Assembly: GCA_044892505.1 (NCBI GenBank)
Contig: CM097882.1
Location: 220,844,001 to 220,908,000 of the forward strand
Reading direction: 5' to 3'
Source of the DNA: Schmidtea nova
Taxonomy: Eukaryota
DNA: 64,000 nucleotides
A model generated the notes under the pieces. The model was not told where the DNA came from and did no database searches. It saw nothing but the letters and a program-made list of their open reading frames with translations. Both the position numbers and the translations under genes were made by a program. Positions 32,094 to 56,600 of this stretch are shown piece by piece. Numbering within the stretch: position 1 is the stretch's first letter; each line of letters opens with the position of its first letter.

Positions 32094-32450
32094 CTATGGC
32101 TCATTCGTTGAATCTGGTTCCGTTTCGTTGTTTAATCTATTTATTACCCAACTCATCCATCCTTCTTCGGATTCCTCTCCTTCTCCTCGTGTTAAATGGT
32201 TTATTTCTATTGCTTGTCTTTGATTGGTGTTGCTTATCGTTTGATTTTCTCTGGTGAGTTCGGTTATCACTCTTTGTTGTTCTTCTATTCTGTGTAATTG
32301 TTCGAAACAGTTGTTATAACTTTCTGATAGTAACATTTGTTTTTCCGCTAATTGGTTCTGTAATGAGTTGACTGTTCGTACTCATAAATCGCATTGTGCT
32401 TTCCATCTCATAGCCATAGTTATTTCCGTTGTTTCGTCTTGTTCGGTCAT
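32094..32450 (-). pseudogene. 118-aa coiled-coil accessory ORF with one in-frame TGA
   Basis: MTEQDETT...CDL*VRTVNSLQNQLAEKQMLL..., with tttag|aaaATG context. Confidence 0.5.
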
Positions 32451-32575
32451 TTTCTAAATTATATACATCGTTTACTTTGCTTTTCTATCTTTTTACAATT
32501 TTTATAATATCAATACCCATACTAGTACGGTAATGCTTTGTTATTTACACTTTTATTTACAGTCATAATCCGCCC

Positions 32576-35500
32576 CTATACATTCATTACTATCCCTTCG
32601 TCGTATCTTTCTTCGTCTTCTATTTGTTTCCAGAATTCTTTACCTTTCGTTCTTCTTTGAAATTCTTTCTGTATCTCTTCTGGTATTTCTATTCCTTGTT
32701 TCATAATTTTGATATCTGGCCATTGTAAGGCTGTCGCTTTGTTTCTCTTCCTGTATTTCCAGTATACTATCATGCTGGTCGTCAGTATTCCATACGCTAT
32801 TAATATTCCCATACTGATCAATCCTATTACTGCTTTTCCCATGTTTGTTTCTTTGTTTTTATTCTGATTTACTTTTATCTCATTTTGCGTTTGAGCCTCT
32901 GGCCTCTTCTCCTTCTGCACTTGACTCTTGACTTTGTTCATTACTTCTTGTGTAGACCAATGGCGATTTAGTAGTTGTTTGACGTCGTTTTCCGTTGTCT
33001 GGTTTTCTACGCCTCCTGGTTCGATCCGTTGCTGTATTTTCTCTGAGATCTGATATAATCCGCATTCTGGTTCTTCTGAACCTTTTCTGGTAAAGGTACA
33101 TATCGCGTATGTCTTATTTACTTCCATTTTCTTTAATTCGATTTTTTCGTTATTCCTTGTTTCTTTACAGTGGGTTAAGTTGTTTTCTTCTACTTCTAGG
33201 TTATACTTTGTCCAACATATTCCCTTTACTGTCTGATCAAGTCCTGTTAATGTCAGAGTTCTTTCTGTTTTAGTTGTTGGTTCCTTTGTTAACCCTTCTT
33301 CATCGAATTTCAGTATCTCTCCTTTTTGGAATGTCTTGCAATTCTCTATTCCTGGTTGACTTTCTTGGGTTCCTTTCTCCCATATACATATACTTCCTTC
33401 TCCGTTCATTTGTATTTCTTGTATTTCGGTTTCCTGGTTTGTTCGTGATTCGTCGCTTGTCTGAACTTGGTATTCCCTTGGTTCGTTGTACCATCCCCAG
33501 CATATTTTGTTGCTACTCTGGCCTTTTCTCCTTATTGTCATAGCCATCTGTTCTATTGTTATTCCTTTATCAATACGTTTGGACATTGCTATTATTAACG
33601 CTATGCATACGAAGTCCTGTTGGGGTGATACTCCTTCTCTCGTATTATTTGTGCTTCTCTCCCCTTCTCTTGGTTTGTCCGTTATGTTTTTCATCTGAGT
33701 TGCTGGTTGATCTATTGTGTTTTTAATTTCTTTCTTTGTTGGTTTTACTTTATACCATTCAAGTCTAGGCGTTTCATATTTTTGACATACGACTGTCTTA
33801 GGTAGCCCCGACTTCTTTTCCCTTTCTATTATGCATATCCGATGCATGGTTCCTCCATCCATTTCTTCTATTCGTACTATATCCTGGTCGGATTTTCTGA
33901 TTATGCATTTTAGTGGGTTATTTTCTCCAATTGGTTCATCTTCTCTATACCAACATATTTTCTCGGCTTCCTGGACATTTATTACTTTTATCCCTGTCTG
34001 TGGGTTTATTGCTTCTTCCCTATTGATCAATGTCAATATTATTGTTAGACCCAACCATTTTGAACTCTGCGGTAGGCTTCTGGTTCGTTTTTCATATTTC
34101 GTCTCTTTGCCTTTAATCTCTTTTATTTCTTTGTCTTCGTTGTTCATTCCTAGTTTTCCGATTTTTGCTTCTTTCTCATTCCTGGTCGATTTTGGTTCTT
34201 CTCGTGCTTTTTCTTCTAGTATTTCAACTCCATGGCTTGTATTATCTATATTTAGCCATTGGGTTGCCGATTTTCTTGGGTTTATCTTGCGTATCCATAT
34301 AGCTGATAATGCGATTATTACTGGTATGGTCGCTGTTAATATTCCTAAGCCAATTAATTCTTTAATTTGTTTATTCTCGTCTGTTTGTATAGATTCGCTT
34401 TGGTTGAACATTATTCCATATTGTCCTTTTAGTTTTCTCCTTAGTTGTTCTCGTTCCTCCTGCTTTCTTTTGACTTCTTTGATAACTTCTTCAGGTGTCC
34501 ATTTTGCTTGAGGGTCGGTTATTATTTTTTCTGCGTCCATTTGTTCATTAGTTTGGCTTAGTTCCTTGAATTCGATTTTCCTTGCTACTCCTTTTGATGT
34601 CGCGTTTGCTGGTGTATAGTAGGTTTCGCATCTTTCTTGTTGGTTTCCTAGTGCGTCCATTTTTTCTATTGCGCATACTTCGTACTCGCTATTAAATTGT
34701 AGTTTTTCGATCTTGATTTCTTTATTTGTTTTTCTGCACTCTCTTGATTGTCTTCTTATATGTTTCTGGACTATTATCCAACATATTTCTAATGTTTTAT
34801 TCTCTATTTTCCATAGTGTCAGGGTTGCTGAGGTCTTTTTCTCGGGTTTTGTCGTAACTTCTTGGCTTATCAGTTGTTTATTGTTTTTAAAGGTAGTGGT
34901 GTACTTCGGTTTTCCTTTGTTTCGTTGTCTTCTTTTATTTTTCCGTATTAACGTTTTGGTTCTTGTTCCGGATGAAGTTGTATATATTCCGCATTCTAGG
35001 TCGTTTATCGTTATTTGATCACCTTTCTTTATCAGACATATTTCGTAGGTTTGCTTACTTTCTAAACCTTTTATTTGTATCGTCGTTGCTCCTGTGCTTG
35101 TTCGGCATTGTGGTGTCATTCTTTTATTTGTTTCCTTTTCGTACCTCCTCCAGCATACTCCTTTCACATTTGGTTCTATCTCTTTTATTTCTAATGTTAT
35201 GTTTACTTTCTGCTTGATTTGTTTATTTCTCTTCCTCGTTCTCCTTCTGAACTTTATTACTTCTCCAGGTTGGAATGTTTTACATTTTGTGGTACCTTTC
35301 TTGTTTCTCTCTTTTTCTAGTAGGCATAGTTTGTACATCTTGTCTGCTCTTACTTCGGATACTTTAATTACTTTATTTGTTGTTGGTTTTCAACTTTTCC
35401 TTATTTCGTTTACGCCGATTTCTTCGTCATTCCTCGCCCAACATTTTATGTTAGTATTCTGTATATCTTCCACTTCTGTTATTGTCATAGTTTCAATTTC

Positions 35501-36796
35501 CATCCCTTCCTCTAGTCGTTTTATTATTATTAGTATGAGTGCTAAGCATAATACTTCCATTTGGTAAGACACTCTTTCGGTTTCGTTTGTGGTAACTCTT
35601 GCTTCGGGCCTCTCTATTGTAATTCGTATAGTTGGTGTTGTTTGCTTATCTATTGCCTGGGGTTTTTTGTTTTCTGTTCCCTGTGTCTCTGTTCTTCCAC
35701 ATTTTCCGACGATGTAATCTCCTTTGGGTGACTGTTGTACTGTCATGGTTGCTTTAGGTGTTTGGTAGTTTGCACATGCGATTGTGTTGTGTGATCTTGG
35801 ATGCTTTTGTTTTCTAACGGTGCATATTTTGTACCAGGTATTTAGATCTAAGTCATCGATCTCTATGATCTCTTGCTCGTGTTTTGAGATTCTGCAATCC
35901 ATCGGACTATTTTGTTCCGTGATTTTGTCCTTTTTTGACCAACATACTCGTTCGATTCCTTTTGCGTTTTTTATTTGTATTATTGCCCTTTCTTCACATG
36001 TCATTCTTTGACTTGGGTTAATTAACGTTAAAATCACTGTTAATAATAGTAACTCTGGTTTGAAGAATGGTTTTATGGTTGATTTGTAACCTGTTCGTTG
36101 GGTGTCATTTTTATCTCCTTTGTCTCTTTGTTCTCCCTCTTCATTTCTTTGTTTTTCGTCTTCATTTTTCTTTTCTTCTTTGTCTCGTTTCTTGTCTTTT
36201 CTCTCGTTTTCCTCTTTATCGGGTGGTTCGTGATCGTTCGAATTTTCTGAGTTGTTATCGTCGTCACTATCTGTATTGTCATCTCCCCCTGGCTCGTCGA
36301 AAATGTCGTCCTCGACATTGATTTCTTCTATTAGTTTCGCATACGCTAATGTCGTTAGATTGCTTGCCTCAAACTCTTGTGTTTCTACATGTTCTGGTAT
36401 TACTTTGTTAGTGGATTTATATTCCAAGATTTCCTTTTTGGCCTTGATCCAATTGTTGATGTATGTCTTCATCAATTCTTTCCATTTGCCTATGTATTTT
36501 TCTTCTTTCGGGCTGGTTGTGATTCTTAGATCTTTTCTTTCCATAAACATTTTCAATATCTCTGGCCATTTATACGTTATTAAGGCACTTCTTATACACC
36601 AGTTTTGGTTATGTTCTGTAAACTCATTGATCCTGAATGCTGGTTCGTTAGTATTCGGATTTATCCACGTAAGAATTGCTTCTGTTAGTTCGACATTATG
36701 CATCATTGTTAGTACACTGGGTTTCTTGACCGTATCAGTTAGGTAATCTATTTCTTCCTGATTGGAGATTGTAATATGAAGTTGACCATTTCCCAA
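32576..36796 (-). pseudogene. C-terminal polyprotein segment: acidic linker, then two duplicated modules of signal-like segments + Cys-containing FN3-like repeats + TM
   Basis: ORFs 35390-36796 and 32576-35338 share a frame (TGA at a conserved Cys position). Repeats follow ICW..C..I.I..L....Y.IC..C..Y.TP. TM segments IGLGILTATIPVIIALSAIW and IGLISMGILIAYGILTTSMIVYW. Confidence 0.7.
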
Positions 36797-37956
36797 TTAT
36801 GTGTTAGTAATGCTACATCCAAAATTGAATTATCTTTATCTGTCTTTCCTGTAAGTCCTGCACCTGCTTTGTATAGTTCTTCCAACACCTTTGTTTTTGT
36901 TTTAGCCCTTGCTGCAAATACCATAAGTGTATCTCCTTTCTCGTCTACCATATTCATGTTGCTTCCGCAGTTTAGCATTACTCTTGCAATTTCCATTACT
37001 TTTCTATCTTTGCCATTTCGTAGAGCTCTATGTATGGGCATTATTCCGTCCTTTGGTAGTAAAAATGTTACTGGCATCTCTTTTTTTATAGTCGTTATAT
37101 CGTTACCATTGTATGTTCCTTTTGCGTATGCGTGTACTTTTTCAACTAATGCGCCGAGTATTTCCAGTGCATGTTTACTATTCTCGAATTCCAAAAACAA
37201 TTCTTTTGCTTTTTCTTGTATCGCATCTAGTCTAGCTTGGTATGGTGCTTCTGCTTTGAAGAGTGGTGTGAGTTTCTTGTTACTTTCTCTTTCCTTTTTC
37301 TCCAAAACCTGTTTGCATTTTTCGGGATGGTTTAAGATTTTTACTAATTCCTCATACTCACTTACTATCGTCTGGTATTTCTCGTTAAAATTGTTTATGT
37401 CTTTGTATGTTATTAGTTTATCAAGTGGTTTCGCACACCATTTCCTAATCTTGTTGAATAAGGCCTCCTTCTCTTTATCGAATTTGTATTCTTCTTCATT
37501 CTTTGTGATGTTTATGTTTCCTCTGTCTAATAAGGTTAGTAATGTCTTTTGATCGCAAGTAAATTTCAAAAGATATCTTAACAGCGCGTTTTGTGCTTCG
37601 CTGTATACTTCGTTAATGTCTAAGACCCATGTATCATCTTCTGGTCGTTTCCATTTGATTAACTTACGGATCGTGTTGCATTTACCAATTTTTATTGCTT
37701 CTTTGATAATGTCTCCTTTTATTAATTCGTCTATTTCCCACGTGGAGCTAGCTATTATGTATTTCAGCATTGGTTGGTGAGAACTCCATATTACGTGATT
37801 GAGCACTGTTTTGTCTTCTCTATCTCGTTCTGTCCAACTGAAACGGGCTTTTATCAATAAATCTACCATTTCTTTATCTGCTTGGTGGATTGCGGCTGTC
37901 ATTAATGGAGTTTCTTGTTCACGATTCCCCACGTCCAAGTTTTGGTTTGTTTCTTT
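36748..37956 (-). pseudogene. Ankyrin-repeat segment, 3' part (after the nested insertion)
   Basis: ETPLMTAA, KTVLNHVI, GIMPIHRAL, GDTLMVFAA and NSILDVAL ankyrin cores. Probable 1-nt frameshift near 36770 into the next segment. Confidence 0.85.
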
Positions 37957-39009
37957 TGTTGAGGTTGTTAAATTAAAATTATCGTAAATTAAATTAGAAT
38001 TATTTTGAATCAAAAGAAAATTGAAGTGAAACGAAAGAGAATCGAAATCGAAGCTGGAAAACGGAATAGGTGTAGATCAGGGATTGGCGAAGAAGATAGT
38101 GAGCAAGAAATTGTCAGAAAAGGTCTTGAAAGGGTTGAAAATAGGTAAAAAAGGTTAAAACAGAAATCATTAATTAATTAATTAATTGGCTAATGGAAAA
38201 CCCGGGCTAATGGGAAGTCCGAGCCAATGGAGAACCCGAGAGATGAAGAAACCTCGAGCACGGGTATTAGGGAAAATAAACAAACTGAACGTTGGAGAAC
38301 GATTATCAAAACAAACAAAACGACTTTTGGAGAGACATTATTTGAACAACCGAGCGCGGCAATCGAGAAAAATAAACAGTTTAACTTTTAGAGAACCATT
38401 ATGGAATCAACAGGATAAGTGAGGGTAAATAAAAAAAAAGATCGGAAATAACATGAAGGAACGGTAGAAGTGATTAATTACAGTTATTTTATCATAATAT
38501 CAAAGGAAACCGCTGGTAATCAAAATGATTATTGGAGTATATAAGGAGACTCCAAATTCAGAAAAGGCGGCGTTAGCCTTAGGTAGGGAAGAAGAAATCG
38601 ACAATAGGTTTTGGAGATTGTGAGAAGAAGTGAAATTGGGAGAAGTGGAAAATTAAGGAATCAAAGAAGTCAGATCAAGAAAATTAAAGGATATCAAAAG
38701 TGAATCAAAGAGTTGAGTGAATTAAATTCAAAATAGTCAAACACATCGAATCAAAGGCAAGGAGTCGAATAAAGGAATTAAAAGGTGATATTTACTTTCA
38801 GATCGCACAGGGTCGAGACTTCCGAGGCGAGGCTTGATCGAGTAGATAAAAAGTTTGATTATTAATTTATTGTTGTGAAATCGGTTGTGATTGAGAAGTG
38901 TAAAGTGTGATAACAAATATACGTTGGGAAATCGGAGTTTATTGATTTGTCTGAACACGAGGAGTCAGAGTAACCAACGATCAATCTTTTGTTATTAGAA
39001 AACCCAACA
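37957..39009 (+). repeat. 5' LTR (1053 bp, TGTTG...CAACA)
   Basis: Differs from 50764-51835 by 3 substitutions I could see, two 1-nt A-run indels and a 17-bp duplication. Confidence 0.97.
38538..38544 (+). promoter_or_regulatory. Candidate LTR TATA box (TATATAA), with an Inr-like TTCAG ~20 nt downstream
   Basis: Motif and mid-LTR position only. Confidence 0.45.
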
Positions 39010-39017
39010 TATATTAT

Positions 39018-39035
39018 TGGTGAGCCCGACGTGAT
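39018..39035 (+). promoter_or_regulatory. Primer-binding site complementary to the tRNA-Trp 3' end
   Basis: TGGTGAGCCCGACGTGAT; reverse complement ATCACGTCGGGCTCACCA vs eukaryotic tRNA-Trp ...ATCACGTCGGGGTCACCA. Confidence 0.85.
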
Positions 39036-39227
39036 CTAACGTTGGTGAAAGATTATTGAAAATAGATATTTGCGACTCGATATAAAGTGATAGAGAAGTA
39101 TTGAAAATTTGAAGTTGAGTTTGAAAGTTTGAAAGTTGGCTGAGGACAAGTAAATTTAATTTGTTTTTATTTTGAATTTTAGATCAAAGTGAGTCGATAT
39201 AACCTCAGAAGTTTGAAACAAACACAA

Positions 39228-40262
39228 ATGGCAAATGATAATGCTGTTATGCCTCTCAATAGAGAGATGATTGATTTTGCAAGCTGTCAAAAATTACCGG
39301 TGAATCAGTATGGTGGAGATCCGGTTGAGTTTGCAGACTTCATGGGAGATTATTATATGTATGCCAAAGCTTATGGATGGTCACAAGCAATAATGGTACA
39401 AAGATTTCCGTTATACTTAAAGGGAGCCGCAAGAGAAGCTTGGCAACAAGTGGACAAAAGGACAGTTGGAAATGATTGGGCAAAATTGAAGGATGCAATG
39501 GCAACGAAATTGGTAGGTTGAGATATCAAAAGGATAATGCGACAGAGATTTTACAACAGAGTTCAAAATCCAACGGAATCGGTAAGTGAGTTTGCATATC
39601 ATCTAAATACTTTAGCAGATAAAGCCTTTGAAGCAAAGCCTGAGCAAGTTGATATGGTGAAGCAGGTTAAAGAACTGCTTCAAGATCAATTCATAACTGG
39701 AGCTCATCCCGAAATAAAGAAGGCATTATGTTATGTAGATTTTGCAAATTTTGATGAACTTGTGAAGAAAGCAATGAAAATTGAACTGAATTTAAAAAGC
39801 ACCAGAAAATCTGAAGCATTCGCAGCAAATGTTGAAAGGAGAGAAAGGTCGATAACACCTGTCAGAAATCAATGGGAATCCAAGAGACCAATCCAAACAA
39901 TCAGTTCTCCCAGATTAGGTACTAAGATAGAAACTAACAAAGCAGCTTTTGGTAGCCAGCTAACCGAGAGATCAAATAGTGTCGTATGCGAGCACTGCAA
40001 AAAAATCGGACATTATTCGAACCAATGTTGGTTCAAATATGGCAGAAATAGTAGTCCTAAAAGAATATTTGTGGAAAACAAACCAAACAATAGCAACTTG
40101 GAATGTTATCGATGTGGGAAAACGGGTCACATTAGCAGAAATTGCTTTTCTAAAAATCGATCACCATCAACATCTCCGTCACCGCAACGAGATAAAGTAA
40201 ATACAAATGGACAAATTCAATGTCATTCATGCAAAGGTTATGGCCACATGGCTCGATCATGC
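39228..40262 (+). CDS. gag: Gag region: capsid-like domain plus three CCHC zinc knuckles
   Basis: RFPLYLKGAAREAW, then CEHCKKIGHYSNQC, CYRCGKTGHISRNC and CHSCKGYGHMARSC. Confidence 0.93.
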
Positions 40263-40789
40263 CCAAAGAATGCAGAAAGATTCAGCAGACCAATACTGAA
40301 GAGATCTATTAGATTTCAGGATGAATCATCCAACGCTAATGTAGCTTATGCTCAAAAGGACGAGTTTAAGGAGAAAATGGAAAATGAATTCCGGGAAATG
40401 AGACAGAAATTAAACAAACTAATGTCAAAATTCGAATCAGATGAGGAAATTGATTCTTGTATGGTGTACGAAAAAGAAACCGATGAAAAAGAAAGTCTTG
40501 GAGATAAAGCGAAAAACGACTTGTCAAACGAAAAAGCTATATTATTGATAAATAAAATAGAAAGATGGTATACGAGGATGGAAACAAATAATCCAAAATT
40601 GAAAGAGTGGATTAGCGAACTATCTCAAATGCAACTCAGCCAAAGAAAGTTGAAAAATATTTTAAATTTATGTTCAAAGTTCTACAATAAATCTCAAGAT
40701 GATGAAATTGCCAAACTGATGAAAATATTTGGAAAAGCTTTGAGATTGACAAAAGGTCTGCCTGATATTTTTGTAGAAACCACCGATGG

Positions 40790-41465
40790 AGATGACGTAA
40801 AATTTCACTTTTCTATTAAACCAGATGGGCAGATAAAAGATTTGAGAAAGCTTATTATGTCAAAATACCAAGGAAATGAAGTACAAATAAAATTTATACA
40901 ACGTCAAATTGGTCAATTAGCGGATGAGGAATTCTTGGTCGATTATGGTCTAATTCCTGGATATAAAAACGAGGTAAAAATTTTAAATGTCATTAATTAT
41001 TCAAATTTAGCTGACAAAAGTTGGAAAAAAAAATTACAGGATTTGCGAGATATGCTATATGTCGGAGATGAAGATGAAATTAATAAATGCCTTGATTATA
41101 TAATGAATTCAGAAATTGATCAAAAATCAAAAGAACAATTATTTGAAAATATTTTACCTTATATTCATAAAACAACAAACTATCAAGTTAAATTGAAGGA
41201 AGTAATACGAATGCTAGGTCATGGTTACCGAGTATCAGATCATACTTCAAAATCCTTAGTAATAGCTCTAAATATGAATGGAAAAGTAGAATACCTACAA
41301 GAGCACTGGAGCATAAAGGTGGCGAAATTACGACGGAAAGCTGCAGAAACATTGGGCACCGATGGAATCATCATACTGATTTTCAAAGGAGTGGAATTAG
41401 ATGATGACGAATATTTTGTCAATTGCGGAGGCAGCCCGAACTATATAAATAATGTCTATGCCACA
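40790..41465 (+). CDS. Two ubiquitin-like domains within the polyprotein
   Basis: IKDLRKLI...LADEEFLVDYGL and VAKLRRKA...LIFKGVELDDDEYF resemble the ubiquitin V..LK..I / LIF.GK.L.D...L.DY.I pattern. Confidence 0.55.
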
Positions 41466-41909
41466 ACACAAATGAATATTTATGAGGATGGAACTCATTG
41501 GCCCTTTATCGTAAAAGAAGATGATAACAATACTGTGATCAAAACTGAATTATCTGAGGAACCGAACGAAAACGAGTGTGAAAATTATAAAAGCAAATTA
41601 ACGGAGGAACCAAGAGAAGCCGAGTGTGACGAGTGCGAATCAAAACAAACAGATTTGAGTGAAGTGCAAAACGAGAATATTAGTAATGAAGCAGATAAAA
41701 TTTGTGCAGTAAATCAAGAGATTAGCAATGTAATTGAAGAGATGTTAATTGCAGAGAGAATGAAATGCGAATCGAATTTTGTAGAAACAGAAGACGGTGG
41801 TCAATCGAACAACCGGAAGCGAAGAAAATACAAGTTAAACAATAAAGAGGAACTAAACGATCTAGATAAAACGGAGTCCAGTGATGTGGAAAAATTAGAC
41901 TTAAATGAT

Positions 41910-42280
41910 GTAAAGCAAACAAAATTAATTCTTAAAGGGTTGGCATCGGAATTATATGCACTGGATGAAAAGAATATATGTAACGATAAATTCATACAAC
42001 AACTTGCCAGAGAACTGAAAGGACGACTTCCTGTAGCACTTAAAAAAATTAGTAAAGAAGACATATTTTGCGACGAAACAGTAATCAAAGAGCTAATTAA
42101 AAACGGTTTGAATAAAGATGTGGTATTATCAGTCCTTGCTTATATTGTTTTCGAAATTGGTATCTACCGTTGGCTGGAATCTGATGAATCGGAAAAGTGG
42201 ATAGAACAAGCAGCAAAAGTGGTAAATACGTATGTGAATAGTTGGATCAAATGTAATGGTGGATGGAAAAATTTGACACC
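41910..42280 (+). CDS. Bcl-2-like domain within the polyprotein
   Basis: VVLSVLAYIVFE (BH1/alpha5-like) and YVNSWIKCNGGWKNL (BH2 WI..NGGW), followed by a hydrophobic segment. Confidence 0.7.
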
Positions 42281-42326
42281 AAAACCAGAAAATTTGGAAA
42301 GGGTGTATGAGCCAAAAAAGGGGAAA

Positions 42327-44190
42327 ATGATAGTTCCATGGGTATCTATGTTTATTATCATAATATTAGGATTTATCAATACTACAACGTCATTGGTAGC
42401 TTATGATTGTTCTCAAACAGAAATGGGAAAAGTATACTCGCTAGTAGATGTAGCTGAATGTCTGGATGCATATCCGAGACATTTAAAATGGGCAAGTGAG
42501 ATGAAATATCATGTTTATCAAGAATCAGGATTTAGACGAGTAAAAGTGAGAGAGTGTACGGCAAAAAGGACCACATTTACATTTTATTGTGGCAAATGGA
42601 GTCATTCGTCGTTAATAAAAATGCATTCAATCCCTAGAGTAATTGAGATAACTCGCGAAAACTGTTTAGCAGCGTTTCAAACAGGAGAATTAAAAATAAA
42701 TGCGGAAATTAAGTTAAAAGCGAAATTGAATCACAAAATTCGCGAAACAATTGCAATAAAAGGGGTGATCAAAGCAAATGGCGATTGCGAAGGTGAATCG
42801 CACAAGGTGGGTGAACAGGTTATTGATAAAGTCGTTGTTATAGAAGAGTACGAATCAGAGTTGAGATATTTTGATGGATCGTTCGATGATGACACGGGAA
42901 AATTACAAACGCATCCATTTTGCAATATGAGAGAAACCAGTTGTAATACAGGTGAATCAATTTTAGTGTACGACGTGAATGTGAAAAAGTGTAACTTAGC
43001 GCATTTAAAATCGATGCCTTTCAAAGAGATAACAGGAGAGCAAATTCAAGAGAGACCAGAAAGTACAATTCTAAATTCAGTGATGAATACAACGATTAGA
43101 ATTACTCCTTTGCGAATGAAGGATACTCCAACGGTATTAATGGCAATATCCCCGAATGATGGGATGAGATTTCTCAGAAAAGGTATAAATACCAAGTGTG
43201 GACAAACAGTATATGAAACAAATTATAAAGGAATTTACGTATCAAAAAGAATTGTCGAGGAAGCTCAAACGAAGTTATATTCAGAGGAAATTAAACTAAC
43301 GAATTATTTCAATAACAAAATTGATTATCTGTTTCATTTTAGCCAAGATACGGTTGAAAGTGTGTATCGAGAAATTATATTAAATGATTGCAAGTTAAAT
43401 AAGGAAATTTTGCGAAACAGAATGGCGATGGCTATTACAAATCCGAATTTAGTTGCTCCAATGCTAATATCAGAGAACGGAGTATTTGCTCGAATTTTTG
43501 GCGAAGCGTTGTATAGCTATAAATGCAAAGCTGTACCTATCAAATTGATGAAATTCGATCAATGTACAAATGAATTGCCAGTGAATTTTAACGGGAAATT
43601 GCGATTCATGGAACCGGTGACACGCATCCTACTGGAAGAGGACGTGAAGCCTAAAGTGTTGCAATGTAATAGATTATTGGCTCCACTGTATCGCTTGACG
43701 TCTGAATCATGGATTGCACTACCCGATCACAGAGGAGTGAAAGTTCCAGAGAAATTGGAGTTAACCAAATTAGAGTATTTGATTAATTTTACATCGCTAG
43801 ATAGTATGACGCAAAGTGGGATGTATTCAAGTGATGATATTGAAGCGGCCCGGAGAAATTTATTATTTCCATCAAAAAAGGAAAGGGTGATTATGGAAAT
43901 GGTGGACACTATTCTCCCGAGTGGAACTGGGAAAGCAAATTACGACTACTTGTTAACACCTGATCATTACAAAAGAGCAACATATAACACGATGAAAAAG
44001 ATATGGGGAAAGTTCATGTTTATTGGTCAAGCGTGTGCTGGATTAATTGGAATCTACGTAATAGGAATCGTGATTAAAGTAATAATCTCGCAGGTGTTGT
44101 CAACACACAGATTGTATACTATTACGGGATTGTCTTGGAAATTAGTCATGGGATGCGTTCCATTGCTAGCCAGATTTTTTATCACACATC
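42327..44190 (+). CDS. env: Internal signal peptide + viral-type class III fusion glycoprotein (chuvirus G / gB-like) + TM
   Basis: MFIIIILGFINTTTSLV-AYDC; YSLVDVAEC; FYCGKWSHSS; DCKLNKEIL..MA.TNP; GEALYSYKC; CTNELPV; C-terminal hydrophobic segments. Confidence 0.8.
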
Positions 44191-44599
44191 ACCAGTATAA
44201 AGAGATGGAAACTTTGAAAACACGACTGATGAAAAAGAAAAAGGTAAGTTATATCGATTTGACTACTACTTCTAACGATGACAAAAATGATGACGAAAAT
44301 ATCAATGAATCCGCCCCGTTATACTCGGAGGAACGAATGCAAAGTAACACATTGAAAAACTATCAACTGCTAAAAGAATCGCTGTCCAATAATGATAATC
44401 AGGATACCTTTTCTAGATTGTGTATACCAAAATCGTTTATCCAACCACTACCAGCATATCCAGTCGAAAAATTGAGGGAAATGAAACCAGTCGAAAATAT
44501 TGCTTTACAATGTGAGAGAATCGAACCAACAAGTGCCGAAATCGAAAGACGAAACCGGTTAGGTTTACCCGGAAATTATGTATTGATGACGTTAGCAAA

Positions 44600-44940
44600 A
44601 ATTGGCAAACAACCACGAATATTAATCCAACTAAATAAAAAGAGAGTGGAGGCTGTGGTGGATTCAGGATCAAGTCATACAATTATATCAGAAGAGATAT
44701 TGTCGGCAAAGGAAAAAAGACAAATAAAACCATCAAATAGCATAATCAGATCACTGTCTAAAAACGTATTGAGAATAATTGGAGAAATAGAAGTGGTACT
44801 TCTAATTGGTGACAGAAAGATTACACATAACGTACAGATTATGGAAAAAAGCCCTGTATTGTGTTTGATTGGAATGGATGTACTGGAGCAGTTAGACGGA
44901 ATTTCACTGGATTTCAAAACTGGAAATTTGATCGTGGGAA
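44600..44940 (+). CDS. Retropepsin aspartic protease
   Basis: AVVDSGSSHTII (DSG at 44661) and CLIGMDVL. Confidence 0.92.
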
Positions 44941-45349
44941 AAAGTGGCGAAGTCATTCATAATTTAGGAGAAGTATTTCTCAGTCAAGCGTTAACCATCC
45001 CACCTCAAACAGAAATAATATATTATGCGAACGCTGCTGGCGTAGACGATGACGAATTTATATTTGAACCGAATCAAACGTTAATAGAAAAATACGAGAC
45101 CCCGATGTGTGACGAAATTGTGAAAGTGGAAAATCAATTATTACCAGTGCGAATAGCTAATTATGGTGACAAGTCAATTCGGCTAAAACCAAAGACGAAA
45201 CTAGGAAAATTGTCTAATATGTTGATAGAAGCGGAAAGGAAGATTCCTAGAAACGTAAAAATTTATAAAGAACCTGAAGTAGTAAGTACTGATTTGACCG
45301 AAGAGCAAAGGCAAAAGTTTACAGAATTGTTGAGGAGATACCGGGATAT

Positions 45350-46650
45350 TTTTGCGAGACACGAATATGACTTGGGGTTAACAAATATAATTGAACATGA
45401 AATTCCGTTGTTGGATGAAACCCCGGTGAAAATAAAACCGTACAGAATACCATATATTCATCAAACCGAAAGTGATCGACAAATTCAAGCAATGAAAGAT
45501 TTTGGAATAATCAGAGATAGCTCATCACCGTTTTCGGCGTCCATTGTAATTGTAAAGAAAAAAGACGGAGATTTACGATTTTGTGTGGATTACAGAAAAC
45601 TGAACCAGGTAACAAGAAAGGATACATATCCAATTCCTGTACCCCAGGAAATGTTCGATCAGATGGGAGAAGCTCAATATTTTACTGTGATTGATTTGAA
45701 TAAAGGGTATAATCAATTTAAAGTCAAGGAAGAGGATAGAAAGAAGACAGCCTTTTCAGATGGCAAAGGGTTATTTGAGTTCAATGTTCTACCGTTCGGT
45801 TTGACGGGAGCCCCGGCTACATTTCAAAGAGGTATGAATTTTGTATCAGGAGGCTTAAAACACGCGTTAGTTTATATTGATGATATTATTATATTTTCAA
45901 ATAGCTTTGATGAACATCTCGATGATGTTGAGGTAGTATTTAAACGACTAAAAGGAGCAAAATTGAAAATAAAACCATCGAAGTGTGAATGGGGAAAGTC
46001 CGAAGTGGTGTATGTTGGTCACATAATATCAAGACGAGGTCTACAAACAAATCCTGACAACATTAAAAAGGTGGAGGTGTATCCAATTCCAAAGAATGCG
46101 GATAATGTGAGGCAATTCTTAGGATTAGCAAGCTATTATAGAAAGTTTATAAAGAATTTCTCGCATATAGCTCAACCGTTAAATTCATTATTGAAGAAGA
46201 ATAACAAGTTCATATGGAACAAAACTCAACAAGAAGCTTTTGACGCACTGAAGCAAAAATTAATAACGACACCTATTTTGCGATGCCCGGATTTTACAAA
46301 ATTGTTCTTATTAATGACGGATGCCAGTAACGTTGCATTGGGCGCAGTGTTGGGTCAGAAAGTAGATGGGGAAAAGGATCACGTGATAGCGTATGCAAGC
46401 AGGTCACTGAGACCACACGAAAAAAATTATTCAACAATTGAAAAAGAAACCTTAGCGTTAGTTTACGGAATCGCTACGTTTAGACAATACTTGCTGGGAC
46501 GGAAATTTATCGTATACACTGATCACAATCCTCTTCAATGGTTGATGAAGCATAGAGATTCAGCTAGTAAATTAATTAGGTGGTCAATAGCTCTTTAAGA
46601 GTATGATTTCGAAATTAAATACAGAGCAGGGAAAGCTAATGCAAATGCCG
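45350..46650 (+). CDS. pol: Reverse transcriptase and RNase H
   Basis: VKKKDGDLRFCVDYRKLN, LPFGLTGAPATFQR and YIDD (45873); TDASNVALGAVL, YSTIEKETLA and TDHNPL. Confidence 0.97.
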
Positions 46651-46949
46651 ATACAATGTCCAGAATTCCCAATGGAGGCAGTGAAAGTGAAGGTAGTACA
46701 GAAACGATTGAAGGCACGATATTTGCCGCAATTAAAGCCGTTAACAATATGATAGAGTTACAAAATGAACAGAAAAAGGACAATCAACTTAAACAGTTTT
46801 TTGAACGAGCAATTACAGTCGAAAAAGAGAGAAATTTAAAGCAAATAATCAATGAAAATCACAAATATATAATTCACGAAGGAATATTAAAATGTGTAAA
46901 AAACGGTGAGATACTAATCGTGATTCCTGAAAAACAGAGAGATTCATTA

Positions 46950-47990
46950 CTAATGCAATATCACGATGGAGCTTTAGGAGGGCACTTATCTGCTAGAAAA
47001 ACTTTATCGAGACTAAAACTAAAATATTATTGGCCATTAATGGAGCAAGATGTGAAAGATTGGTGCAAGAAATGTAAAATATGTATTACAAGGAGAAATA
47101 CAGGAAATAAAATTAAAGTACGTTTAAAACCAATGCCTGTACCAACTACACCAATGGAGATGACTGCAATGGACATTGTGGGACCATTACCTGAAACAAT
47201 AAAAGGAAATAAATGTATCGTAGTATTCTGTGATTATTTGACGAGATGGCCGGAAGCTTACGCCATACCAAATCAAAAGGCCGATACGGTAGCCAAAATA
47301 TTCGTAGAGAATATTGTCTTTAGATATGGCACTCCAAAAAAATTACTAACTGATCAGGGCTCAAACTTTCAAAGCGAATAATTTAAATCAGTTACTGAGT
47401 TATTTGGAATCTGGAAGCTGAACACTTCTCCTTATCATCCACAAACCGATGGCTTAGTTGAGAGATTTAACGGTACATTGATAAATATGATTTCTTCGTA
47501 TGTTAATAGTAAGCAAAGGGATTGGGATGAATATATAAAGCCTTGCTTGTTTGCTTACCGAAATGCAATAAACCCAAGCACGGGTGAGACACCTTTTTAT
47601 TTGATGTATTTAAGAAGAAATAATATGCCGATAGATTTAAACTTCCAATTGCCGGTAACACAATATATGGAAATACCAGACTATAAAGCATTAATGCAAG
47701 AAAGAGTGCAGTCTGTGTGGGCAAAAGCTGGTTTAACGGTAAAACACAATCAAGAAAAGTATAAAGAAGCCTATGATAAAAAGGCACATCCACATGGAAT
47801 CAAAATTGGAGACTTGGTATATCTCAATAGACCTGAACCGCTCAAAGGAATGTCACCAAAATTACAGACACCGTTTAAAGGGCCATATAAAGTATGTGAC
47901 ACAACTGAAACAAATTTGAAACTACTACCATTCAGGAGTAAAAAAGCTAATCCTATAATAGTTCATGCAAATCGATGCAAATTAATGCCA
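46950..47990 (+). CDS. Integrase (HHCC, DDE, GPY)
   Basis: HDGALGGH...CKKC; MDIVGP; TDQGSNF; PYHPQTDGLVERFN; FKGPYKV. Confidence 0.95.
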
Positions 47991-48109
47991 GAAGACGATG
48001 AAACAAGATATCCACTTCGATCAAAACAAAACAAAGAAAAAGTGGATGCCATAGTTCAACAAAAATTTACCAAAAACCCAGTCCCAATCAGTTACATTAC
48101 AAAAATGTT

Positions 48110-49220
48110 GTTTATAATGATTGCTCTGTTAACACTGACAAGTGTTAAGGGTGGGAAGGTCGATTTACCGTATGCAGTGACAAAAATACCCTTATGGGAA
48201 AAGATCAATATATACTCTACGTATACGAATATTGTCTGGATCTATCATTGTGAGGTATCGGAACAGATAGAAATTAACAACCTCTTAGATCCATTCACGC
48301 CGGTCAGTATTCTTAATTACGATAGAAATATGTATGTGGCACAAGAATTAAAGGCGAACTTCAAGTATCCGTGGTTTATAAAACAAAATGAGACAAATTC
48401 GTCGGTAAAGTTTGATAGTCAAATTCGAGTCATAATACAAACAAAAGAATTACGACATACAGTCGAAATAGAGCCGGTATTAAATGGAGTAAATGTGTAT
48501 TGGATAGCAAGTGAACGGGTGAAAGCACAAGTGATATTTCAAAACTTTGTTGATACATTAAATACACGTAAATCGTATTCTCGATATTATAACCTAAAAA
48601 TGAATGCCAATTATACCATATTAACAAACTATTATGAAAATATGCTATACGATAACGGGACAATAATGAGCAATAGATGGGCATTGTTTAAAACCGAAAA
48701 GCAGAGTATTTACCTAAGAAATGTATCGAATATGGTGATTTTCAAAGTGCAGAATGAAGCGATAGTAATATACAGAAAATCAATGATCAATGAAAGAGTA
48801 ATTATTAGTGAGAGTCAAAGAATTATCGTTTTGTTGGATGTGGGTAAAAGTTACTTTTTATTTAATACTTCTAATGTAGGAGATAATTACCTGATAAAAA
48901 TCAAATACCAGCGGTGGATGGACAAACCATATCGTTGGCAAACAGTTTTGGTAGAAACAAAACTGATCAAAAGGCCAGAGTTGATCCTAACAGCCACACA
49001 TCAAACACAGATGATAGTAGCAACCACGGGCCCACCCCTGAATCGAAATAAATTTAATCGAACTCAAATGAGCAAGCTAGTTTTAAAAGAAACGAACCAA
49101 ACATTAATCATCTGTGAATACTTACTCTATCTTATGATAACAGCATTTTTCATATTATCCATAGTGTTTCTAATAATAACAATCGTATTATGTAAAAGGA
49201 CACCTAACTATGATCATTGA
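48110..49220 (+). CDS. Integrase-fused membrane protein: signal-like segment, beta-rich FN3-like repeats, TM
   Basis: MLFIMIALLTLTSVKG; VNVYW..Y.LKMNANYTI..FKT; TM YLLYLMITAFFILSIVFLIITIVLC. Confidence 0.6.
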
Positions 49221-49428
49221 CAATGAGTTTATATTGCATGCATGTATATATATAAAAAAAATATATATGTATATAATTATTGATAATCTGTATGGTTAAA
49301 AGTAAATTAGAAATGTGTGACCTGAATGAAAAATATTTTGGTTGATCGAGTGTTGCTGAGGAGGGTCTGTCCTTGTGCGATGGAAGGAGAGATGTATTTA
49401 AAGTATTAATTATCTTTAACTTTAGGAA

Positions 49429-49672
49429 ATGCAGGAAGAAGAATCACTAAAAGAATGCCTTAACACCATGAAAGAGATGAGAAAAAAAAATGAAGGCAAT
49501 GGAGAAACGAATTTTCGATCTGGAACAAGAGAATTTGGTGGTCAAAAGACGATTTGAAAAAATGGAAATTCTTCTCTTCAGATATGAAGCCGAAGTGGTT
49601 CTATGGCGAATGAAACTACAGGAGCAGGAAGACGAAACTATGGAGGAGGGAGAAATGAATAACTTGGACTAA
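49429..49672 (+). pseudogene. Small coiled-coil accessory ORF with a slip in an A-run
   Basis: tttag|gaaATG QEEESLKECLNTMKEMRKK / MKAMEKRIFDLEQENL. Confidence 0.4.
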
Positions 49673-50751
49673 AACTGTGAGAATTAATAAAAATATTAAG
49701 AAATAACCTTTTTTTTAAATTTTCGTCCTTGAAATAGTAATGGTGAAAACTAAAACTAAAAATAAGGCAAATTTATTATAAATAACACCATAAATAAGAA
49801 TTAGGTGAATCAAAGTCAATCATCGTCGTCCAAAATAATAAAACTTTGGACGACTAAGTCATCCCGAACCCCGTGGGGAGGGTCATTTTCAAAGCGGAGA
49901 GTTTTTGCAAAGCCTTCCATAACCCCAAAGGTCCTTTTGAGGCCCCGACGTCGCGGAAGGGCGACCGGTAACCAAACTAATGCTTCGGACTTAGGAGCCT
50001 AAAATAACGAATATTAAAAAAATTTCAATTGCTTAGGGATATATGTAGTACAAGTTATATAATAATAATAAAACAGTAATAATGATTATGATAATAATAG
50101 TAATAATATAATAATGTATATATATAGTAATAACGTAAATAATATAAAATATGATAAAATAAATAATAATATAATAAATAAGAACTATAATAACAAAACT
50201 TACCTTCATTTTTTTGGGAATTTGAGAAAAAATGAAAATGAGATAAAAATATCTCTTTATATAGAATAATAATTAAAGAGTTATCTAAAATGATAACTTT
50301 AGTAAATAAATAATTAAATTTTTCGATTTTGGAATCGAATAATTTTTTTTCATTTTAATTTATTTAGAACTGAATGAAAAAAAATTTTAAATGTAAAAAT
50401 TCGTATAAAATAAATAATAAATAAAAATAATCAAATAAAATATGATAAAATTAAATGGTAAATTTATTATATTTAAAACAAAAAATTATTTTAATAATTA
50501 AATTTAGAAATAAATCAAAAAAATAGTAACAAATATAGAAAATACTTAATTGAAATTCAGCTAGGATCTTAATCTCTGAAACACGGTATATTCGAATATG
50601 TAAAATAAAATAATAATAATAATAAAATTATAAAATTATGTAAATGTGAAAATATATTTATATAGATATGTGTGTGTGTGTAAGTATATGTATATATAAA
50701 TAAGTACAAAATAACTTTCAAAACATCTGTTTCGAGGACGAAATTTTTTTT

Positions 50752-50761
50752 AAAGGGGAGA
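50752..50761 (+). promoter_or_regulatory. Polypurine tract
   Basis: AAAGGGGAGA, 2 nt before the 3' LTR. Confidence 0.85.
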
Positions 50762-50763
50762 TA

Positions 50764-51835
50764 TGTTGAGGTTGTTAAATTAAAATTATCGTAAATTAAA
50801 TTAGAATTATTTTGAATCAAAAGAAAATTGAAGTGAAACGAAAGAGAATCGAAATCGAAGCTGGAAAACGGAATAGGTGTAGATCAGGGATTGGCGAAGA
50901 AGATAGTGAGCAAGAAATTGTCAGAAAAGGTCTTGAAAGGGTTGAAAATAGGTAAAAAAAGGTTAAAACAGAAATCATTAATTAATTAATTAATTGGCTA
51001 ATGGAAAACCCGGGCTAATGGAAAACCCGGGCTAATGGGAAGTCCGAGCCAATGGAGAACCCGAGAGATGAAGAAACCTCGAGCACGGGTATTAGGGAAA
51101 ATAAAAAAACTGAACGTTGGAGAACGATTATCAAAACAAACAAAACGACTTTTGGAGAGACATTATTTGAACAACCGAGCGCGGCAATCGAGAAAAATAA
51201 ACAGTTTAACTTTTAGAGAACCATTATGGAATCAACAGGATAAGTGAGGGTAAATAAAAAAAAAAGATCGGAAATAACATGAAGGAACGGTAGAAGTGAT
51301 TAATTACAGTTATTTTATCATAATATCAAAGGAAACCGCTGGTAATCAAAATGATTATTGGAGTATATAAGGAGACTCCAAATTCAGAAAAGGCGGCGTT
51401 AGCCTTAGGTAGGGAAGAAGAAATCGACAATAGGTTTTGGAGATTGTGAGAAGAAGTGAAATTGGGAGAAGTGGAAAATTAAGGAATCAAAGAAGTCAGA
51501 TAAAGAAAATTAAAGGATATCAAAAGTGAATCAAAGAGTTGAGTGAATTAAATTCAAAATAGTCAAACACATCGAATCAAAGGCAAGGAGTCGAATAAAG
51601 GAATTAAAAGGTGATATTTACTTTCAGATCGCACAGGGTCGAGACTTCCGAGGCGAGGCTTGATCGAGTAGATAAAAAGTTTGATTATTAATTTATTGTT
51701 GTGAAATTGGTTGTGATTGAGAAGTGTAAAGTGTGATAACAAATATACGTTGGGAAATCGGAGTTTATTGATTTGTCTGAACACGAGGAGTCAGAGTAAC
51801 CAACGATCAATCTTTTGTTATTAGAAAACCCAACA
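50764..51835 (+). repeat. 3' LTR (1072 bp)
   Basis: Copy of 37957-39009. Confidence 0.97.
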
Positions 51836-52193
51836 CTTTTGCGATTTTTAAGAATTCTTTTACTCTTTCAATGTTTTTACACTGTATCGCATTGTGTAAG
51901 GCTGGTTGTCCTCCTATATCTTTCAATAAGAGTATTTCAGGGATTTTTCTCAATAATTCGGAAATAATTGGTTCGGTTGGTAATCCTTGTGCGTAACGGC
52001 TAATTATATGTCTGATGTCCCTTGATATGCCTACTTCGTCTCTAACATGCCATCTTCCCATTATCTCTCTCGCCTTCAATATGATTTCTTTATTTCTGAT
52101 TTCCTTTTGCCTTATTTCCGCTTTGTCGTCTTCGCTTGTGTTTGCTCTGAGCATATTTATCCTGGCTGTTTGTGATCTGGTTATTATTCGATA
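51836..52193 (-). pseudogene. Ankyrin-repeat segment, 5' part, in frame with the upstream integrase
   Basis: GGQPALHNAIQCKNIERVKEFLKIAK joins ETNQNLDVGNREQETPLM in frame once the insert and one TSD copy are removed. Confidence 0.85.
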
Positions 52194-53540
52194 TTATGGT
52201 GTTGTAGTTATCGTTTTAGGCACTTTCTTACATCTGCAGGTGTTTACATATATGGGTCGTACTAAAGGTTGATTTACTAGCTTGACTTTGACATTATTGT
52301 CTTTTTTGTATATAATTTCATAAGGTCCTCTTCCAGGTCTTTGGCGTTTCTTAACAGTTCCTGGTATTATTTCGGGAGTTTCTATTATCACCCAGTCTCC
52401 TGGTTTTAGATCGTTTGCTTTTACATTTTTCTTTTGGTCGTGTAAGTCCTTATAACTTTCCTGATAAAATTTAATGTTGAGTTCTGCCGTTTTCCATATT
52501 TCCTGCATTCTTTCTTTGAATTTGGTTACGTAATCGTCGTCTTCCATTTATTGCAATAATGGTGGTTGATACTCTAAATCTATGGGCATGTTGCATTCTC
52601 TTCCATACATAAGTTGAAACGGGCTTAGTTTTGTTGCCGCATGTATCGACATTCGGTATGCCATTAAGCATAATTTTATGTATTCGTCCCAATCAGTTTG
52701 GTGTCTGCTGACGTAATTGGATAGCATTCTGATCAATGTGCCGTTGAATCTCTCTGTTTGTCCATTCGTTTGCGGGTGATATGGTGAAGTTCTCAATTTT
52801 GCTATTCTGAAATAGTTTGTCACCTCGTTCAATAACTCACTCATAAAATTAGTTCCTTGGTCTGTGAGTATTTGTTTTGGAGTTCCGTATCTGCAACATA
52901 TTTCTTCTACCAAAATTTTTGCTACTGTTTTTGCTTTTTGGTCTTGCATGGCAAATGCTTCCAGGAATTTTGTCAGATAATTTGTTATCACCAATATATA
53001 AATATTTCCGTTTAGACTTTCCGGTAATGGTCCTATTACGTCCATTGCTATAGTTGTCATTGGCTCTGCTGGTATCGGCATTGGTTGTAGCGGGTTCTTC
53101 CATTTCTTCCCACTATCCTTTCTGGTTGCGCAAGTTAGACAATTTTTAATCCATTCTTTAATATCTTCTTCCATTGTTCGCCAATAATATTTTTGTCTCA
53201 TACGATTTTTTGTCTTTTTCTCGGACATATGACCTCCTAATTTCCCATCATGGTACTGGATCATTATCTCTTTCCTTCTGTTTTCCGGTAAACACATCAA
53301 TCTCTTTTCACCGTCTTGTATCAACAACCATCCTTTGTTTAATATATAGCGATGTTGATATTTTCCTATATGTTCCTTTAGTTCCTTATTATCCTTGAAT
53401 ACCTCCATGTTTCGAGATGTTAGGAACTCTATGATCTGTCCTAATTCTTTGTCTTCCTGTTGATCTTTCTTTAACTCACTAAAATCTAACTCTTCTGCTA
53501 TTAATACACAGATTCGTTGTACATCAGGATCGGTTAATTC
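52194..53540 (-). pseudogene. Integrase of the giant element, with in-frame TAA at 52548 and 52194
   Basis: HDGKLGGH..CLTC; MDVIGP; TDQGTNF; PYHPQTNGQTERFN; GRGPYEI. Confidence 0.93.
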
Positions 53541-53601
53541 CGGAAATGTCAGTCTTTTCTTTTGCCCAATCGCATTTGGATGGCTTGAGTTTTAACTTCC
53601 A

Positions 53602-56600
53602 TTATCTAAGTCTAACGAATACATCTCGCATATCCTGTATGTGTTGTTCGAATGTACTGGAGTAAATTAATAAGTCGTCGATGTAGACCATGCACTGCTT
53701 TATTCCGTGGGTGACGAAATTCATGCATCTCTGAAATGATGCTGGTGCGTTTGTTAGTCCAAATGGCATCTTTCGAAATTGATATAGGTCTCTACCGATG
53801 GTAAAGACAGTTTTCTCTTTATCTTCTTCCTTCATTTTTATTTGCCAATATCCGCTTTTCAGATCTAACGACGTAAAATATGCTGCTCCTTGTAGTGTTA
53901 GTAGCATTTCGTTGATGTCCGGTAATGGGTAAGTATCTCGTTTTGTCACTGTATTCAATCTTCGATAATCTATGCAGAATCTCTGTGTTCCGTCTTTCTT
54001 CTTTACCATTACCACTGGAAATTGCCAGGGTGAACAACTTGGTTCAATTACTTCTGCATCCAACATTTTCTTCACTTCTGCTTCCGCTACTGCTTTCTGT
54101 GCTTCCGCTAGTTTGTACGGCCTTAATGCAATTGGTGTTTCATCTGTTAATGGTATTGTATGTAGTGTGACATCACATGTTCCTAGATCTAAATCGGATG
54201 CTGCAAATATATCCTTATACTCCATCAGCAGTTTTTCTAACTGCTTCTTTTGATCCTCATTTAATAATTCACTATCGATATTCCAGGTTGGTTCTTTATC
54301 TTTCTCTGCTACTTCTATTGGTAGTTCGATATCCATCATTGGGGTTAATTTACCTAATCTTTCGTTTTCGTAGATTATTTTATCCTCCTCGTCGAAATTT
54401 ACCACGTTTATTGGGATTTCTCCATTATCATTTATGTTGACTAGTCCTCTTGCCATTGGCAACGCTTTTCTTTTCTCGAATCTTTTACTTGGTTCGAAAA
54501 TCATATCCCCTTGGATTGTCGGATCTATTTTTACGTAACATATTTTTTCCTTTCTTGCGGGTATTATCATTTGCTTTGAACTTGTCACTTTGGCTTCTAT
54601 TGCGCATATTTGTCCGGTGCGATCTTTTAGTCTCATTGTTCCGAGATCGATTACAATCTCTTTAAATAATGCTGGCATCAAATCTGTTCCGATAATGCAA
54701 GGCACGCTTAATGCTGGTATAACTGCTACGTACGTATCAATTTCCGTGTTTAAATGGCGTATTTTTACCCACCATCTTCCTGCTACTTCCACGATTTCTT
54801 TGCTACATGCAATTACGTGGACGTTTGTCCTGTCTATATCTCGTCTTTGTTCTTGTGGTATCCATTTGATATCGATGGCGGAGATATTTGCTCCAGTGTC
54901 GATCATTGCTTCGATTTCTCTTCCGTTAATTTCTATTGTCGTGGTTAGTACTGGACCTGTGTTTGATGACATTACGGCGATCGTATGTGCGTCTCCTTGT
55001 GGATCTACACTTCTACATCTTCTCATTTTATAATCTTCTGGTATCATGGGGTATACATTTGTCATTGGCATCATTTGCATCGTGGTCGTTCTTCCTCCTT
55101 GTAGTGGTTCTTGATACATGGTTGGTAGAGGTGCGTAACATTTCCATGCGTCGACTGGATTCTTTTCGATGTATTGTGGTGCTTGGTTCTTATACACTTG
55201 TCCTCCCTTATAGTCGTCATCGTCATCATCGTCGTCACTCGAATCATTTTGGGTTTTATATCCTTTCATCCTCTCCCATAAACCTTTTCTTTCTCTCTTG
55301 AGCTGTTGTCTTGCTTGTTCGTCATTCATTATCTTTTTAAATTTTCGTCCCACTTCTTCATCTGTTCCCTTCATTTTTGCGAGTATCTTCAACAATCTCT
55401 TTATTCGATGTATGTCCTTTGAGTGTCCGTGTAACACCATCGTTTTCGCAAGGAATGGTAAAAACCCTACTACCATTTTCCAATTCACTTTCTTTTCTCT
55501 CTTGTAGATATCGAAACACGCTAACATTTGTGTTATTATCACTCTGACGATTTGGATTATTAATATGACCCCCAGTATTCCAGCCATCATTTGTCCGAAT
55601 ATCAGAAATCTTCCCCACATTGCTTTCATCATATTTTCCTTGGCTTTCTTGAAATGTGCTGGTGACAACAACAGTTCATAATTTGGTCCTTCTCGATAAT
55701 TCGTTCCTCCCGTTATCGTTACGATATTTGACAGTAATGCTTCTCTTCTCGCTGGGAATAATATATTCTGCCTTGCTGCTTCTAAGTCCTTTGGACTATA
55801 TATTCCGTTGTTTGAGACATCTAGGTGGCTGAATTGCCTATCCTTTGACAACTGCATTAGCTCGAATTCTCTTGGTGCTATCACTTCGGCTCTTCCTGGG
55901 AACATAACCCATTTACCATCTGGTTTCTGATAAAGCGGTCCGTACGCATTACTACAGTTGAATGGATTTGGTTCAAACCCTTGTGGATTGATGATTCTCG
56001 TCACCGGTTGAACGTATCGTACTTTTCCTTTGTAATCGATTTCTAACTCATTTGTACAGGTTCCAGGTTTCAACTGCGTTGGTGCTGCTAGCGACTCGTG
56101 TGTCTTTTCGCAAATGTATACATACATTGCTTCTCCAACCACTCTTCCGAAATGTCCTTCTCTCAGTGGTAATAATGGCATCGCGCTATCTGGATTCGTA
56201 ATCGCTACGGCCAACTTTGTCTTTAATATTTCTCGATTCAGTATACAATCATTGTTTATCAGATCGTAGTACACTTTTTGTAATGAGGCTTGTCCTCTAT
56301 GGAATAAGAAATCCATTTTATTATTCACATACAGGTGTAGTTTGATATCCATTGTGTCGATTTTGGGTTTCGCATTTGGCACTTCTTGTTTTGACACATA
56401 TATTCCTGGATAATTTGTTTCGTATACCGTTGTACTACACTTAAGGGTTGCTTTCCCTTTTATGAATCTCATTCCTACATCCTGATTTGTGGTTATCAAC
56501 ACTGTTGGTGTGGCTCTCATCTCTATCCGTTTTTCTCTATGATCTGGTTTCAGTTGTTTTTTATTCTCTAAAGCTTCCTTGAGATGCTTTGCTCTAGCTT

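Follow-up and report, generated by a model that had tools for sequence, protein, structure and literature searches.

On sequence grounds, the two long elements in the window (the whole 64,000-nucleotide stretch of Schmidtea nova DNA analysed here) are quite probably Ty3/gypsy LTR elements of the flatworm GAG-ENV-POL kind, in which a predicted herpesvirus gB-type envelope (env) stands in frame with Gag and Pol, likely within a single membrane-threaded polyprotein. They are marked by two long, purine-rich open frames, 39522-46598 (+) in element 1 and 60957-53602 (-) in element 2. The order along the frame is gag, ubiquitin-like region, BCL2-like domain, signal, ectodomain, transmembrane helix (TM), amphipathic helix, linker, protease, RT, RNase H and integrase, and the element 1 family adds a terminal second signal/TM protein. 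The gag-env-pol layout is already known; support for the topology is what the present work adds.

Two nested elements and their frames

Element 1 spans 37957-51835 on the plus strand (13.9 kb; LTRs of 1.05-1.07 kb). Its 5' LTR (37957-39009) has TG...CA ends and is 97.9% identical to the 3' LTR (50764-51835), which with its polypurine tract occupies 50745-51835. A primer-binding-site-like sequence (39018-39035) starts with TGG 8 nt past the LTR, and one search pattern matched no cognate primer tRNA gene for it. Gag (39228-40262) contains Retrotrans_gag and three CCHC knuckles, and the open frame of 2358 aa takes in the Gag zinc knuckles, env, protease, RT and RNase H. Between Gag and env lie a weakly matched ubiquitin-like region (40740-41519; Pfam ubiquitin at E 0.0047, below the cut-off) and a BCL2-like domain (41898-42290) that ends in a BH2-like GGW word. 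Downstream of env, Pfam identifies the protease (VDSGS at 44658), RT and RNase H in 44607-46595, a part that includes a putative dUTPase-like spacer, so named after PMC6431247, and then an integrase with H2C2, rve and GPY/F (46923-47900). In-frame stops at 39519, 46596 and 47379 break this copy.

Element 2 lies on the minus strand and measures ~29 kb after subtraction of the nested insert. Its Gag (61087-62826), with CCHC knuckles, shares the frame of env-pol, with two stops between them in this copy, and the open frame of 2451 aa contains env, protease and RT. The BCL2-like domain is at 57448-57840, and protease, RT and integrase fall in 51840-54942, where RT is cut by a deletion of ~650 nt at the RT end/RNase H. 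Past the nested insertion, the 3' part (28620-37952) encodes ankyrin repeats, membrane-protein ORFs and TRAF (RING/zf/MATH); two of its ORFs, 468 and 937 aa long, contain TM segments and repeated units of Cys/Trp and matched no Pfam family. The 3' LTR (25432-28619, at least 3.2 kb) matches the neighbouring stretch L082 at 98.5%, which is also the identity of the element 2 LTR pair, the 5' partner lying just outside the window. Element 1 is nested between the integrase and ankyrin-coding parts of element 2 and is flanked by a 4-bp target duplication, CTTT (37953-37956 and 51836-51839). A sister copy of element 2 aligns along 59900-51836 and then resumes at 37958, straight across the insertion. 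Upstream of element 2 gag, units of 32 nt and 31 nt are arrayed in tandem at 63340-64000, and a figure legend for the planarian Burro element mentions tandem repeats (PMC6431247). Elsewhere in the window are long inverted-repeat pairs at 19665-21041 (96-98%) and 6899-8360 (93%), which are probably MITE-like DNA elements.

Sister copies carry single uninterrupted frames, unlike both copies in the window. Env queries gave 2600-3400 first-look candidates each in the host genome (G000). Among the 150 best matches to the element 1 env core, 39 sit in open frames of at least 3200 aa (3232, 3345 and 3442 recurring), and 31 of the 150 best matches to element 2 env sit in frames of at least 5600 aa (family frames, 5640-5740 aa), both tallies being biased to young copies by the choice of best matches. 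Further families have frames of 3393 and 3401 aa. Sixty loci were fetched, and 56 held the BH2 word, env start, env TM and protease; all of these share one frame in 46 of the 56, which bears out the conserved layout proposed in the earlier note. The 10 out-of-frame loci split 2/5/3 over three junctions. A programmed frameshift between env and pol was rejected because the breaks are scattered over these junctions in a decay-like manner. An assembly artefact or chance fusion was rejected as well, given the many copies, the presence of at least five families and the occurrence of the arrangement in outside proteins, several of which likewise fuse env to protease or RT.

The env is under purifying selection: its ectodomain shows pN of 0.16-0.17 and pS of 0.76-0.79 (saturated) against three sister families. 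Identity to the sister families is 72% for the env ectodomain, 81-86% for RT, 75-79% for integrase and 56-59% for protease. In some related polyproteins (P0008, P0009, P0010, P0012 and P0020), env is followed by not one but two or three aspartic protease domains. A recurring cleavage word gave 2 and 3 loose matches only and was set aside. Another gag-env-pol polyprotein, P0013, is entered at NCBI as a Flavobacteriaceae MAG protein and probably derives from animal DNA binned with bacteria.

The envelope segment and its predicted fold

The earlier note had described a signal, a Cys-rich ectodomain starting with AYDC or VFDC and a TM in frame upstream of the protease of both elements, and all three were found at these places. 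In element 1, the internal signal (42327-42398) starts with Met at 42327, and its core lies 26 aa after the GGW word, preceded by three basic residues. The predicted class III (gB/chuvirus-type) fusogen ectodomain (42399-43979), with AYDC at 42399 and NKIDYLFH at 43314, is followed by the TM helix (44031-44087; KD 2.5) and by a second hydrophobic segment (44127-44183), which is amphipathic and Pro-kinked and whose predicted place is the cytosolic face of the membrane. The env of element 2 (55432-57348) has its signal from Met 57348, VFDC at 57276, NKMDFLFH at 56322, the TM at 55590-55534 and the amphipathic segment at 55488-55432, upstream of the protease word IDTGA at 54903. The two env copies, with 16 and 15 Cys in elements 1 and 2, respectively, are 36-37% identical, homologous yet diverged as had been noted.

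Both segments match Pfam PF24664 (Monjiviricetes_fusion), with 295 bits and E 1.1e-87 for element 1 and 237 bits and E 5.1e-70 for element 2, against a Pfam cut-off of 27 bits. An AlphaFold env model built on a 116-row alignment (pLDDT 89.9, pTM 0.67) shows a long central helix at residues 324-371 and helix breaks at residues 601-603 and 611. Foldseek gave 122 PDB matches to this model at E<=0.001; among the matches listed, all are herpesvirus gB, the best at E 6e-15 with a TM-score of ~0.4, and neither rhabdovirus G nor gp64 is present among them. An env profile search points weakly in the same direction, with herpes gB at E 0.012. A single-sequence PDB search with env gave centrin noise only, and a search of a phage collection gave no match.

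Outside the host genome, 1481 proteins match env at E<=0.001. The best of them are polyproteins with env ahead of protease or RT, and most others are free-standing proteins of ~650 aa; 2 of the 10 free-standing homologues looked up are named chuvirus glycoproteins. Together with the PF24664 scores, these named homologues agree with the chuvirus-type family suggested in the earlier note, and the gB matches supply the class III fusogen fold whose absence that note had held to count against its reading. We therefore predict, on the model and the profile matches, that the env of both elements is a captured class III envelope of the gB/chuvirus type.

Signal, linker and membrane topology

The BCL2-like domain stands directly ahead of the env signal in both elements. 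Bcl-2 is the sole Pfam family that every one of the five aligned copies matches (best E 1.8e-4, below the cut-off), and a profile of the domain finds BCL-xL at E 0.001, ranked behind two designed helical proteins. A BH2-like GGW word occurs in 9 of 17 polyproteins, with the signal core 26-58 residues downstream, and is missing from the other 8. BCL2 proteins bear a tail anchor at that same place, after BH2. To judge from this arrangement, the env signal is likely to serve the BCL2-like domain as its tail anchor as well.

In each of the five G000 sequences, a Met lies 4-6 residues ahead of the signal core; it could serve as a second start, reached by splicing or internally, that yields Env-Pol without Gag and uncouples the amounts of Gag, Env and Pol. 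Splicing is conceivable since T-rich acceptor-like sites lie ahead of element 1 gag and of one element 2 accessory ORF. The strongest such site of element 1 (39164-39182, +) is 45 nt upstream of the ATG of gag, which hints that the leader region may be spliced. However, 4 of the 5 G000 sequences are close kin, and no Met is present within 25 aa ahead of the signal core in 6 of 12 outside polyproteins. In addition, a crude scan (T-rich defined as at least 9 T of 16), which detects no acceptor anywhere in the gag-pol part of element 2, turned up no T-rich acceptor in any of five elements, whether ahead of the env signal or of the protease; the 400 nt ahead of the env Met reach only 5-8 T of 16 at best in all five. 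We regard a second start as quite improbable. The coupling of Env to Pol stoichiometry put forward in the earlier note is a conjecture. Within env, one T-rich acceptor-like site (43342; also in L042 and L044) overlaps conserved Tyr/Phe codons and was set aside as a coding by-product. One raw-read RNA run gave zero reads on element 1 env, with partial, low-identity reads only elsewhere. The RNA alignments list no GT..AG joint, and the contig runs may be DNA, so that they speak neither for nor against splicing.

The second hydrophobic segment decides on which side of the membrane Pol would lie. By an insertion score that is our own Gaussian-weighted approximation and that puts no more than 44 of the 86 free-standing TMs below 1, the TM has -0.07 in element 1 and -0.24 in element 2, and the second segment has +3.4 and +4.0, respectively, with a high hydrophobic moment (1.2 in element 1). 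Among the 118 rows of the topology alignment, 4 were dropped (gaps or short tails), 9 were unclassified and 86 were free-standing; the scripted polyprotein group of 19 held three long-tailed free-standing proteins, leaving 16. In each of these 16 polyprotein or G000 rows, the TM is the more hydrophobic of the two and the second segment has a score from +2.1 to +5.9, consistent with the amphipathic, not membrane-spanning, character that the earlier note had assigned to it. That note had required such a segment for Pol to stay cytosolic; it is no special adaptation to the polyprotein, as the anchor Gly is present in 80 of the 86 free-standing homologues and the second segment scores above the TM in 77. 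Since the free-standing homologues share the post-TM amphipathic helix, it is an inheritance from the viral family.

If the second segment did span the membrane, the full-length product would have a luminal Pol, and working Pol would come from an env-skipping message. Its KD of 1.3-1.4 over 19 aa and the scores of 0.8-0.9 at this place in two long-tailed free-standing homologues lean that way. In contrast, Lys/Arg and Pro inside the segment, the high moment and the positive scores of the polyprotein rows argue against spanning, as do the late-domain-like words that follow the segment and the lack of an acceptor ahead of the protease in the crude scan. Spanning is, in our estimate, very improbable.

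The late-domain-like words (YPxnL, PT/SAP, PPxY and LPxY) are represented in the env-protease linker of element 1 by LPxY and YPx3L (44448-44474). Of 16 env-protease linkers, 4 of them close kin, 12 contain such words, against 2.2 expected from shuffling. They are also frequent in free-standing chuvirus-like tails (P0026-P0155), where YPxL or PT/SAP is found in 53 of 96 against 7.4 expected. Since late-domain words act in the cytosol, a cytosolic linker and Pol fit their presence.

The element 1 family encodes a further membrane protein in frame after the integrase (48105-49217, +), with a second signal, a glycosylated beta-rich ectodomain carrying 8 sequons, and a TM; the KD values are 1.9 and 3.0. 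Homologues in sister families are 45-50% identical, with 34-35% over the full length, and the L040 family has a shorter version. A PDZ-type ETFV word closes the protein in L042 and L044 and is lacking in the family in the window. By eye, the ectodomain has a fibronectin-like look. The searches returned no Pfam family, no PDB match and no homologue of 209-674 aa, and the model of the protein has a pLDDT of 39. The polyproteins P0010, P0013 and P0021 have post-integrase hydrophobic pairs with no detectable homology to it.

In the membrane-threaded polyprotein that we favour, Gag and the cargo would be made in the cytosol, and the internal signal would then insert N-in/C-out, with signal peptidase cutting just ahead of AYDC. 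After cleavage, the signal may tether the Gag-BCL2 side as a tail anchor does for BCL2 proteins. The ectodomain would fold in the ER lumen, the TM would bring the chain back to the cytosol, and the second helix would lie on the membrane, so that Pol stays cytosolic and the protease of the element releases it. In the Env tail, the YPxL/PTAP words could recruit ESCRT, whereupon enveloped particles would bud. For the compact families, we tentatively extend this to a ~3300-aa protein with four ER crossings (signal 1, Env TM, signal 2 and the TM of the second glycoprotein), in which the Env signal is the BCL2 anchor tethering Gag, the Env tail carries Pol, and Env, not Gag, holds the budding signals. 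Such a protein might support flavivirus-like membrane assembly and enveloped cell-to-cell spread, a reading that we hold possible and somewhat short of even.

Env might instead be retained without infectious particles, as a cell-surface fusogen or as a membrane tether for intracellular assembly, and the linker of element 2, which has no late-domain word at all, would suit such a use. On the other hand, the ectodomain is constrained about like the integrase, and late-domain words are found in 4 of 4 compact families. We consider a non-particle role unlikely; it agrees with the membrane-threaded topology proposed above. Whichever use Env has, a single membrane-threaded Gag-Env-Pol must handle topology, protease release and Gag excess unlike retroviruses.

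Relation to known elements

The env between Gag and protease, which the earlier note had implied to be new, is already in print, both for the planarian Burro (PMC6431247) and for gB-type elements of three phyla (PMC13524379). Arkhipova and Yushenova described Burro/GYPSM1 in 2019 as giant planarian gypsy elements with in-frame gag-env-pol (PMC6431247), and Chary and Hayashi described GAG-ENV-POL gB-type errantiviruses of Platyhelminthes, Nematoda and Bryozoa, listing six elements of Schmidtea mediterranea, Smed_errantivirus_1-6 (PMC13524379). Smed_errantivirus_1 and 2 have ~14.8-kb spans with 45 and 215 copies, respectively (PMC13524379). Env ahead of pol in a metavirus is also reported for the nematode non-canonical ERVs of Sacco et al. 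2022 (cited in PMC13524379), and mosquito BEL/Pao elements are reported to carry a chuvirus env (PMC7642597). The available text of PMC12801592 and PMC8532177 does not mention env.

Our elements show these features of GAG-ENV-POL gB-type errantiviruses: the order PR-RT-RH-IN between LTRs, with RNase H lost by deletion in the element 2 copy, an env between gag and pol that is of gB type with a signal and a TM, and many near-identical open-frame copies. The gene order, gB-type env and multicopy state are those of the GAG-ENV-POL gB-type errantiviruses as described in the accessible part of that work. Compared by eye, 70 of the first 100 positions of the Smed_errantivirus_1 env are identical to the element 1 env, the level seen for sister families within G000. 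One polyprotein, its topology, the BCL2 anchor, the late-domain words and a second C-terminal glycoprotein are not discussed in the accessible part of PMC13524379. In a literature search with incomplete coverage of the relevant papers and supplements, we found no paper on membrane topology, a signal serving as BCL2 anchor or a second C-terminal glycoprotein.

The glycoproteins of Wufeng shrew chuvirus 2 and Tacheng tick virus 4 belong to the same Pfam family as the window env, at ~24-25% identity, and have in common with it the scaffold of Cys residues, the TM and the amphipathic helix that comes after the TM. Unlike the window env, chuvirus glycoproteins stand alone as proteins of ~650 aa whose signal is N-terminal and whose tail is short.

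A supporting role for Burro1 in planarian stem cells is reported (cited in PMC13465017). Given this role and the great abundance of the elements, particle passage between cells becomes a testable question in a laboratory animal. Matched against the published description of Burro, element 2 resembles it in size (~29 kb against about 30 kb), in its long LTRs and in its ORF (5640-5740 against near 5000 aa). The cargo is similar too, with BCL2-like, env, ankyrin and MATH/TRAF parts, TRAF being a 3' ORF in element 2; no BIR/IAP cargo of the kind found in Burro was seen among 15 ORFs scanned. HHpred had connected the Burro env with the fusion proteins of mononegaviruses and with gypsy Env (PMC6431247), whereas the window env is of the predicted gB-type class III. 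Element 1 differs from Burro in its 13.9 kb and its LTRs of about 1 kb and shares with it the order gag-Ub-BCL2-env-pol. Element 2 thus resembles Burro, and the catalogued flatworm GAG-ENV-POL elements have a compact relative in element 1.
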